Assembly: GCF_016903815.1 (NCBI RefSeq)
Contig: NZ_CP069973.1
DNA length: 64,000 nucleotides
Strand: one strand, 5' to 3'
From: Escherichia coli
GTDB taxonomy: Bacteria; Pseudomonadota; Gammaproteobacteria; Enterobacterales; Enterobacteriaceae
Position 1 is the stretch's first letter, and every line of letters begins with the position of its first letter. Shown in pieces: positions 30,933-32,553 of the stretch. The notes beneath the pieces are model-generated. The model was not told the origin of the DNA. It did not search any database and saw nothing but the letters and a program-made list of their open reading frames with translations. The position numbers and the translations under genes were made by a program.

Positions 30933-31637
30933 ATGGACAGATTCCCACGTTCTGATTCAATTGTACAACTCCGGGCTGGCTTGCAAACTTATATGGCGCA
31001 AGTCTATGGCTGGATGACCGTTGGCTTGTTGCTGACCGCATTTGTTGCCTGGTATGCGGCTAATTCCGCGGCCGTGATGGAGCTGTTGTTCACTAACCGT
31101 GTCTTTTTAATCGGTCTGATCATCGCGCAATTAGCATTGGTTATTGTGTTATCAGCGATGATTCAAAAGCTGAGCGCAGGTGTAACGACGATGCTCTTTA
31201 TGCTTTATTCGGCGCTGACGGGTCTTACGCTTTCCAGTATTTTCATTGTCTATACCGCTGCTTCTATCGCCAGTACTTTCGTCGTTACTGCCGGGATGTT
31301 TGGCGCAATGAGCCTGTACGGTTACACCACGAAGCGCGATCTAAGCGGCTTTGGCAATATGCTGTTTATGGCGTTAATCGGCATTGTGCTGGCATCGCTG
31401 GTCAACTTCTGGCTGAAAAGCGAAGCATTGATGTGGGCAGTCACCTACATCAGCGTGATTGTCTTTGTCGGATTGACGGCGTATGACACTCAGAAATTGA
31501 AAAATATGGGTGAGCAGATTGATACCCGCGACACGTCGAACCTGCGCAAATATTCCATTCTTGGCGCGTTAACCTTGTATCTGGACTTCATCAACCTGTT
31601 CCTGATGTTGCTGCGGATCTTCGGCAACCGCCGTTAA
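30933..31637 (+). CDS. ybhL: BAX inhibitor-1 family inner-membrane protein
   Basis: ORF track 261 aa; ATG at 30933 (MDRFPRSDSIVQL, GGAG upstream) gives 234 aa, 7 predicted TM. Confidence 0.92.
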   Translation: MDRFPRSDSIVQLRAGLQTYMAQVYGWMTVGLLLTAFVAWYAANSAAVMELLFTNRVFLIGLIIAQLALVIVLSAMIQKLSAGVTTMLFMLYSALTGLTLSSIFIVYTAASIASTFVVTAGMFGAMSLYGYTTKRDLSGFGNMLFMALIGIVLASLVNFWLKSEALMWAVTYISVIVFVGLTAYDTQKLKNMGEQIDTRDTSNLRKYSILGALTLYLDFINLFLMLLRIFGNRR

Positions 31638-31655: not shown

Positions 31656-31683
31656 ATCCCGGCCATGTGTCGGGATTTTTTTG
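31656..31683 (+). terminator. putative intrinsic terminator after ybhL
   Basis: ATCCCG-N9-CGGGAT hairpin followed by T7. Confidence 0.55.
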
Positions 31684-32395
31684 TGCACAGAAAACCCCCA
31701 GCTAGGCTGGGGGTTCCGGAAAGCTTTCAGCTTTGAGCCAGTTATTAAAACCCCTTTTGATTTGTTAAAACACCTTGCGGTCTGGCAACTGCAAGTGTCA
31801 AACAAGAAATCAAAAGGGGGTCCCAATGGGGAACGAAAAGAGCTTAGCGCACACCCGATGGAACTGTAAATATCACATAGTTTTTGCGCCAAAATACCGA
31901 AGACAGGTGTTCTACAGAGAGAAGCGTAGAGCAATAGGCAGTATTTTGAGAAAGCTGTGTGAGTGGAAAAGCGTACGGATTCTGGAAGCTGAATGCTGTG
32001 CAGATCATATCCATATGCTTGTGGAGATCCCGCCCAAAATGAGCGTATCCGGGTTTATGGGATATCTGAAAGGGAAAAGCAGTCTGATGCTTTACGAGCA
32101 GTTTGGTGATTTGAAATTCAAATACAGGAACAGGGAGTTCTGGTGCAGAGGGTACTACGTCGATACAGTGGGTAAGAACACGGCGAAGATACAGGATTAC
32201 ATAAAGCACCAGCTTGAAGAGGATAAAATGGGAGAGCAGTTATCGATTCCCTATCCGGGCAGCCCGTTTACGGGCCGTAAGTAACGAAGTTGGATGCAAA
32301 TGTCAGATCGTGTGCGCCTGTTAGGGCGCGGCTGGTAAGAGAGCCTTATAGGCGCATTTGAAAAACCTCCGGCTATGCCGGAGGATATTTATTTC
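31684..32395 (+). mobile_element. IS200-family insertion sequence (IS200/IS605 family, about 0.7 kb)
   Basis: Contains Y1 transposase gene; left-end perfect palindrome AAACCCCCAGC-TAG-GCTGGGGGTT and a right-end subterminal hairpin CCTCCGGC-TAT-GCCGGAGG; ends approximate (about ±15 bp). Confidence 0.7.
31826..32284 (+). CDS. tnpA: IS200 TnpA (HUH/Y1 transposase, 152 aa)
   Basis: MGNEKSLAHTRWNCKYHIVFAPKYRR...HIHMLVEIPPK... closely matches recalled Salmonella IS200 TnpA; ORF track's upstream extension rejected. Confidence 0.92.
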   Translation: MGNEKSLAHTRWNCKYHIVFAPKYRRQVFYREKRRAIGSILRKLCEWKSVRILEAECCADHIHMLVEIPPKMSVSGFMGYLKGKSSLMLYEQFGDLKFKYRNREFWCRGYYVDTVGKNTAKIQDYIKHQLEEDKMGEQLSIPYPGSPFTGRK

Positions 32396-32553
32396 TTACT
32401 AAAAACGACACTTAACAAGTACCAGGTATAAAATATGCCTTATGGCCGAGCGGAAGTGTTTTCCGTATCCATAAATACAAAAGTATTTTGTATGCGTGGT
32501 TTTAAATTTATTGATGGTGAATATTAATATTTTTTCTAGGGACAACTAAAAGA

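Follow-up and report, generated by a model that had tools for sequence, protein, structure and literature searches.

Between ybhL and ybhM, the Escherichia coli DNA analysed here (a stretch of 64,000 nucleotides, hereafter the window) carries a segment that is missing from this place in K-12, and the locus thereby raises two questions: what the segment is, and why it lies at the very point where transcription of ybhL is expected to end. We consider it very probable that the region is an intact copy of the known element IS200C (IS200/IS605 family, IS200 group), inserted into the T-tract of the ybhL terminator by the mechanism of its family, essentially silent and probably neutral. IS200C itself is an already known element, and only its chromosomal site is particular to the clade. 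The pattern of sites that IS200-type copies occupy, as seen in sequence comparisons, points to an insertion process that is directed to terminators, and most of the argument below concerns that pattern and the ways in which it could have arisen.

Identity and completeness of the element

The only supported open reading frame in the 712 bp, tnpA, is matched along its entire length by the Pfam Y1_Tnp model (E 4e-38) and scores 147.7 bits with the NCBIfam equivalog transpos_IS200 (cut-off 55), and its product aligns to the solved structures of the Sulfolobus, IS608 and ISDra2 TnpA proteins (2ec2, 2a6m and 2xm3; E 4e-23 to 1e-14). The frame is intact and both parts of the catalytic site are present, the HUH motif H61-I-H63 and Y125; the substitution Y125F is the published catalytic-dead mutant of TnpA (PMC4513863). 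The product is identical to WP_000526135.1, annotated as 'IS200C family transposase', and at the DNA level the element matches, with 100% identity, copies in which tnpA carries the RefSeq/PGAP label 'IS200/IS605-like element IS200C family transposase'. A Y1 HUH transposase, subterminal hairpins at both ends, the lack of a target-site duplication, a length of about 700 bp with tnpA as the sole gene, and a left-end (LE) palindrome followed by a 5'UTR stem-loop masking the Shine-Dalgarno sequence together place the element in the IS200 group of the IS200/IS605 family.

Could the segment nevertheless be a decayed or non-autonomous IS200 remnant, or belong to another family, for instance as an IS605-type element with tnpB? 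We regard this as scarcely conceivable, for the reading frame is intact with its HUH and tyrosine residues, both ends are present, the total of 712 bp holds no tnpB-sized reading frame, and the copy is 100% identical to many others; together with the Pfam and NCBIfam matches, these observations led us to reject both readings. The earlier note on this DNA, made from its sequence, had described a complete IS200-family unit with a Y1 tnpA of 152 aa, a left-end terminator palindrome and a right-end hairpin, and all of this is upheld by the Pfam, NCBIfam and Rfam matches, by the reading frame and the two folds, and by the presence of both ends (Table 1).

The limits of the element were drawn from filled and empty sites. 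Global alignment with K-12 returned a single insertion of 712 bp at 31680-32391, slidable by TTT to 31683-32394, and strain 746, a closer relative that also has an empty site and whose flanks are 99.1-99.3% identical, gave the same 712-bp insertion; the difference between filled and empty sites is thus exactly 712 bp, with no target duplication. Among 10 E. coli copies compared, conservation ends at TTGTGCAC... on the left and at ...ATATTTATT on the right, and the part common to all ten runs from TTGTGCACAG... through ...GGAGGATATTTATT, with divergence outside it. Because both boundaries fall in T residues, the ends are resolvable only to 1-2 nt. Our best estimate is 31682-32393; the interval given earlier, 31684-32395, has the right length and lies about 2 bp too far to the right. 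The termini, TGTGCACAG... and ...ATATTTATT, as read from the sequence, are not inverted repeats of one another.

Table 1. Features of the ybhL-ybhM region. Positions are those of the window; IS nt, numbering within the element.
Feature	Position	Strand	Basis and remarks
ybhL CDS (Bax inhibitor-1/YccA family)	30933..31637	+	ORF list; identical locus in strain 7/2 annotated ybhL
ybhL intrinsic terminator (hairpin 31656-31676, 7-T run 31676-31682)	31656..31682	+	Terminator scan; -12.9 kcal/mol; final T (or two) from the IS
IS200C, complete, 712 bp	31682..32393	+	712-bp gap relative to K-12 and strain 746; landmarks fit with nt 1 = 31682; each end +/-1-2 nt
Left-end perfect palindrome AACCCCCAGCTAGGCTGGGGGTT	31693..31715 (IS nt 12-34)	+	Unique in the window; -18.7 kcal/mol
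Rfam RF01405 (STnc490)	31693..31816	+	146.4 bits (gathering 56), E 2e-31, full model 1-124; covers LE hairpin and tnpA 5'UTR
Predicted antisense sRNA art200, ~90 nt, starting 5' at IS nt 153/154	31746..31835	-	Coordinates transposed from Salmonella IS200
5'UTR stem-loop burying the Shine-Dalgarno sequence AAGGGGGT	31751..31819 (IS nt 70-138)	+	-40.4 kcal/mol, z -3.9; matches published nt 69-138
tnpA, 152-aa Y1 HUH transposase (H61-I-H63; Y125)	31826..32284	+	Pfam, NCBIfam, structure homology
Right-end subterminal hairpin CCTCCGGCTATGCCGGAGG and T-rich tail ATATTTATT	32366..32393 (hairpin 32366-32384, IS nt 685-703)	+	Fold and terminator scan
Sigma-70-like site, the only one upstream of ybhM, intact, 12 bp past the IS right end	32405..32434	+	Weak consensus match; 1 found vs 2.4 expected in shuffles
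Short ybhM allele, 129 aa	32554..32943	+	324-bp in-frame deletion vs K-12, junction 32656/32657

Numbered from nt 1 = 31682, the copy has its palindrome at nt 12-34, its stem-loop at nt 70-138, the ATG of tnpA at nt 145 and its end at nt 712, and in published IS200 the terminator occupies nt 12-34 and the stem-loop nt 69-138, with art200 starting at nt 153/154 and overlapping the first three codons (PMC4513863). The palindrome occurs once in the window, where 0 matches are expected by chance, and is known as a bidirectional terminator that blocks incoming transcription (PMC4513863). The right-end (RE) hairpin folds at -15.9 kcal/mol (z -4.9) and was scored as terminator-like on both strands. 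On the minus strand, the art200 region folds at -35.5 kcal/mol (z -5.1), and the presence of this antisense RNA is predicted here by analogy with the element described in PMC4513863. The STnc490 model matches the tnpA-sense strand, over the LE palindrome and the 5'UTR, and thus corresponds to the sense 5'tnpA structure; STnc490/art200 has been described as antisense to the tnpA 5'UTR (PMC4513863).

Compared with IS200 of Salmonella enterica and IS200C of E. coli, the window copy shows no difference of substance: all fall in the 707-712 bp class and share the single 152-aa tnpA with its start codon at nt 145 and Y125, the LE palindrome (nt 12-34), the stem-loop (nt 69/70-138), the RE hairpin, and the lack of inverted repeats and of target duplication. 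IS1541 of Yersinia pestis has the same 19-nt LE palindrome core, the same RE hairpin with its ATATTTATT tail and the same position behind a hairpin and T-run, but differs in its first 12 nt (GTGCCCAG as opposed to GTGCACAG), in its much higher copy number and in the tandem dimers that it forms in Y. pestis.

The insertion site in the ybhL terminator

The empty site, CCCGGCCATGTGTCGGGATTTTTTTCTTACT, is the ybhL terminator itself, with the same hairpin and T7 in K-12 and in strain 746. IS200C sits inside the 7-T tract of this terminator, its right side keeping one T (ATATTTATT-T-CTTACT), and tnpA is co-oriented with ybhL. The element had been placed in the earlier note between the ybhL terminator and ybhM; this is right for the ybhM side, but on the other side comparison with the unoccupied site in K-12 and in strain 746 puts the insertion within the T-tract rather than beyond the terminator. 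The K-12 spacer between the two genes is 204 bp, which corrects an expectation of about 225 bp. We also considered the upstream hairpin as a part of the element and rejected this, since the hairpin differs at every site and remains at empty sites.

Because the initial T of the element restores 7 Ts behind the hairpin, termination of ybhL is predicted to be unaffected by the insertion. Conversely, the element would be protected from read-through twice over, first by the terminator of the host gene and then by the palindrome at its own left end.

In NZ_AP021895.1 (strain 2018-11-3CC), an IS1A is annotated under the ybhL-ybhM match, which measures 1339 bp, compared with some 560 bp where the site is empty; hence the same short region has been hit by different insertion sequences in different lineages.

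Terminators beside other IS200-type copies

The position of the window copy is not peculiar to it. All 10 E. coli copies compared lie directly 3' of a GC-rich hairpin with a T-run, a different one in each case, with the left end facing the T-run and tnpA co-oriented with the upstream gene. Besides the present site, they occupy the uhpT/adeD, pqqU/mcbR, grcA/eamB and aroG/gpmA intergenic regions, a place next to hypT, and places downstream of carB, plaP, sseA and one hypothetical gene. This sample is biased to T-rich left flanks, because BLAST reports the best-scoring place of each record. A similar arrangement has been mentioned for IS1541, whose copies Odaert et al. reportedly found, in 1998, shortly downstream of co-oriented genes.

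A sample free of that bias came from a scan for the 19-nt palindrome core CCCCCAGCTAGGCTGGGGG in one representative genome per species, which returned at least 120 loci. The matches listed include Y. pestis (IS1541), Vibrio, Brenneria, Dickeya, Edwardsiella, Pluralibacter, Budvicia and Oxalobacter, as well as Mailhella, Desulfovibrio, Peptococcaceae, other Bacillota, Elusimicrobia and Saccharibacteria. Among these listed matches, a strict terminator motif abuts the left end at 76 of 94 junctions (81%), as against 57 of 5000 random windows (1.1%). Measurement of the distance from a perfect stem to the element is noisy, with 30 junctions lacking such a stem, and A-T pairs between A-runs and the T-run shift the stem foot. 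When one mismatch was allowed and stems were trimmed to their G-C closing pair, a hairpin was found at 100 of the 107 unique left junctions (93%) among the matches listed; the same relaxed search found one at 6% of all runs of T>=5, at 13% of T-runs outside long ORFs and at 10% of random positions. With the strict hairpin rule, a hairpin stands immediately 5' of only 7% of T>=6 runs, or 13% of those outside long ORFs.

The spacing between hairpin and element is narrow as well. In 94 of the 100 junctions with a hairpin (relaxed search, matches listed), the distance from the stem foot forward to the G of the TTG start is 4-9 nt (mode 6-7), and the flanks follow a consensus of a GC-rich stem and then TTTTnTT before that G, with T at 69-87% at positions -6 to -3 and an invariant TT thereafter. 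Tandem copies in Y. pestis carry the pattern one step further: at three loci (L107, L108 and L110) a second IS1541 starts exactly after the RE hairpin and ATATTTATT of the first, and the right end of the element therefore behaves like a target. In strain NCTC5923, to which these loci and a fourth (L124) belong, some of the IS1541 copies stand head to tail, the RE tail ATATTTATT being followed directly by the GTGCCCAG of the next copy.

The scan returned two further kinds of context. An identical 19-nt core with a GAAAA-type 5' segment occurs in remote taxa, namely Saccharibacteria, Elusimicrobia, Desulfovibrionaceae, Bacillota, Oxalobacter and Vibrio (L013-L094); many of these left ends lie at contig ends, which suggests multi-copy elements, and their conservation across such remote taxa implies a wide horizontal spread. 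In Ruminococcus, Lachnospiraceae, Eubacteriales, Clostridiaceae and Thioploca MAGs (L039, L041, L042, L073, L082 and L095-L105), the core also appears in repeated contexts that have no IS200-type TTG...GAAAA left end, for example as ...AATAAGCAT-core-TAT or ...GTTAAAGAAATA-core-ATG, and frequently close to the end of a contig. Such contexts may represent miniature elements or other elements of the IS200/IS605 type.

Mechanism and choice of target

Of 15 overlapping 8-kb windows, 13 have a positive GC skew on the + strand, which also bears tnpA and the top strand of the element. The site corresponds to about 0.815 Mb in K-12, which we take to be on the clockwise replichore. From the skew and the replichore it follows that the top strand of the element is on the lagging-strand template, which is where the rule for this family places the active strand. 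The TnpA enzymes of the family excise the top strand as a single-stranded circle, which they insert into single-stranded DNA on the 3' side of a short specific sequence, with a preference for the lagging-strand template (PMC2806898, PMC5027513).

On this model, TnpA would have released another copy as a single-stranded circle and integrated this circle into the single strand exposed at the replication fork. GAAAA is conserved immediately 5' of both the LE and the RE hairpin, and the T-run may be the cleavage or target sequence with which this GAAAA pairs, by analogy with the guide sequences of IS608 that Barabas (2008) and Guynet (2009) are said to have described. The extruded terminator hairpin and its T-run might then mimic the element's own right end, a GC-rich hairpin followed by ATATTTATT; alternatively, the terminator hairpin could supply an adjacent duplex that facilitates integration, as has been reported for TnpA of IS608 (PMC5027513). 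Once in place, translation of tnpA would be kept low by the stem-loop masking the Shine-Dalgarno sequence and by antisense art200, and for this reason we take the copy to be essentially silent and probably neutral.

IS608 of Helicobacter pylori and ISDra2 of Deinococcus radiodurans serve as the family's mechanistic paradigms, with homologous TnpA proteins (2a6m, E 4e-19; 2xm3, E 2e-16), subterminal hairpins at both ends, and insertion likewise 3' of a short specific sequence on a single-stranded lagging-strand template. They differ in that they carry tnpB, use a target of 4-5 nt (TTAC and TTGAT) and have no reported need for an adjacent hairpin; IS200-type copies, unlike these two, stand behind a T-run that has a GC-rich hairpin in front of it. 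In the choice of site, and in that alone, IS200 resembles the class C (IIC) group II introns, which insert just downstream of the stem-loops of intrinsic terminators, a safe haven in which they avoid gene disruption. These introns are unrelated retroelements, with a ribozyme and a reverse transcriptase, and the likeness is an analogy.

We tentatively propose, as a possibility that may well prove wrong, that the elements of the IS200 group (IS200, IS200C, IS1541 and their relatives in Vibrio, Desulfovibrionaceae, Bacillota, Elusimicrobia and Saccharibacteria) are terminator-homing transposons. Their circle would enter a T-tract at 4-9 nt on the 3' side of a GC-rich hairpin extruded from the lagging-strand template, with the hairpin recognised as a mimic of the right end and GAAAA pairing with the T-run. 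If true, homing of this kind would explain why these elements are nearly harmless and silent, how 20-50 identical copies can accumulate in a genome without gene disruption, and the possible double hit on the ybhL terminator. It would also tell what target a classic 'dormant' element recognises, a matter long unclear, and add a target made of structure plus sequence to the guide-sequence model of IS608.

The same pattern of sites could arise if the T-run were all that the transposase needs, with insertions elsewhere, in genes or promoters, being purged by selection, or with copies being silent only behind terminators. We consider this rather unlikely as a full account. It would accommodate sites without a hairpin, and such sites are possible, given that a known IS1541 insertion interrupts inv in Y. 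pestis. [quoted passage not shown] The terminator rule is thus partly known, as a statistical association in one preprint that is understood there as regulation. In the literature searched, which did not extend to older non-open papers (Odaert 1998; Beuzon and Casadesus 1997, 2004), we found no explicit statement that a terminator hairpin with its T-tract is the recognised target of IS200. Selection as the sole cause is nonetheless weakened by the T-run controls and by the spacing. An adjacent hairpin accompanies 13% of T-runs outside long ORFs and 93% of the IS junctions among the matches listed; many hairpin-less T-runs in intergenic regions should be harmless to occupy, yet they are unused. 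Purging would leave the narrow distance from hairpin to element (4-9 nt in 94 of 100 junctions) to be accounted for, and the tandem junctions, at which the RE hairpin and tail of one element serve as the site of the next, also tell against it.

A different reading of the window copy, which leaves terminator homing aside, is that it has been kept as a source of host-regulatory RNA (processed 5'tnpA and art200), a domesticated sRNA locus as in Salmonella. The full STnc490/5'UTR structure is intact, and 5'tnpA regulates invF and virulence regulons in trans in Salmonella (PMC5435999, 10.1101/2024.06.26.600842). The listed genomes with a 100%-identical copy, moreover, have 17-27 IS200 matches each. 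Recent expansion would explain identical copies equally well, however, and there is nothing special about this particular copy. To our knowledge the Salmonella targets (invF of SPI-1) are absent from E. coli, and we hold a domesticated role here to be quite improbable.

Distribution and lineage

IS200-like DNA is present in 3099 of 5426 complete E. coli genomes, at a median of 2 and a maximum of 35 places, and the 20 listed genomes that have a 100%-identical copy contain 17-27 IS200 places each. The copy in the window is intact and does not differ in sequence from the other copies of its lineage. A 1301-bp query spanning the locus matched the K-12 record only at the ybhL-ybhM flanks, and we conclude that K-12 has no IS200, as the earlier note had said. 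The insertion at the ybhL site occurs in exactly 96 of the 5426 genomes, with an identical right junction in 95 of the 96; it had been called strain-specific, and although it is indeed restricted to a lineage, 'clade-specific' is the more exact term. Strain WCHEC96200, which has the same IS at the ybhL locus, belongs to ST405, phylogroup D (PMC5762679), so that the window comes most likely from an ST405-type strain, this being the one carrier strain that was checked against the literature. IS200C at ybhL may serve as a clade marker for the ST405-type lineage and has little importance otherwise.

The one carrier with a different right junction is CFSAN018748 (NZ_CP028192.1), which reads ATATTTATT|CTTACT, with one T fewer, at the place equivalent to 32385-32400 of the window. 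Its junction fits an element of 711 bp, that of the window an element of 712 bp. The IS itself is identical (0 mismatches in 711 bp), there are 3 differences among 400 positions of the left flank, and the YbhL protein is of the K-12 type. This could be an independent insertion in the same terminator, slippage in the T-run, or a homopolymer error of assembly.

The ybhM gene downstream

The gene beyond the element is ybhM, as the earlier note had named it, and alignment with K-12 refines this to a deletion allele (Table 1). The deletion removes 108 codons from the 237-aa ybhM of K-12, in frame, and its junction shows a 4-bp microhomology, CAGG. In RefSeq the short form is called either 'hypothetical protein' or 'Bax inhibitor 1 family protein'; its product matched no NCBIfam model. 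The deletion junction is found in 464 of the 5426 genomes at 93-100% identity; it is commoner than the IS, and occurs without it in strain 746. A further 800 genomes or so give no megablast match to the deleted ybhM segment, for other reasons. We considered the IS as the cause of the deletion and rejected it, given the allele's presence in 464 genomes and beside the empty site of strain 746. An effect of the element on read-through and on the expression of ybhM is plausible.
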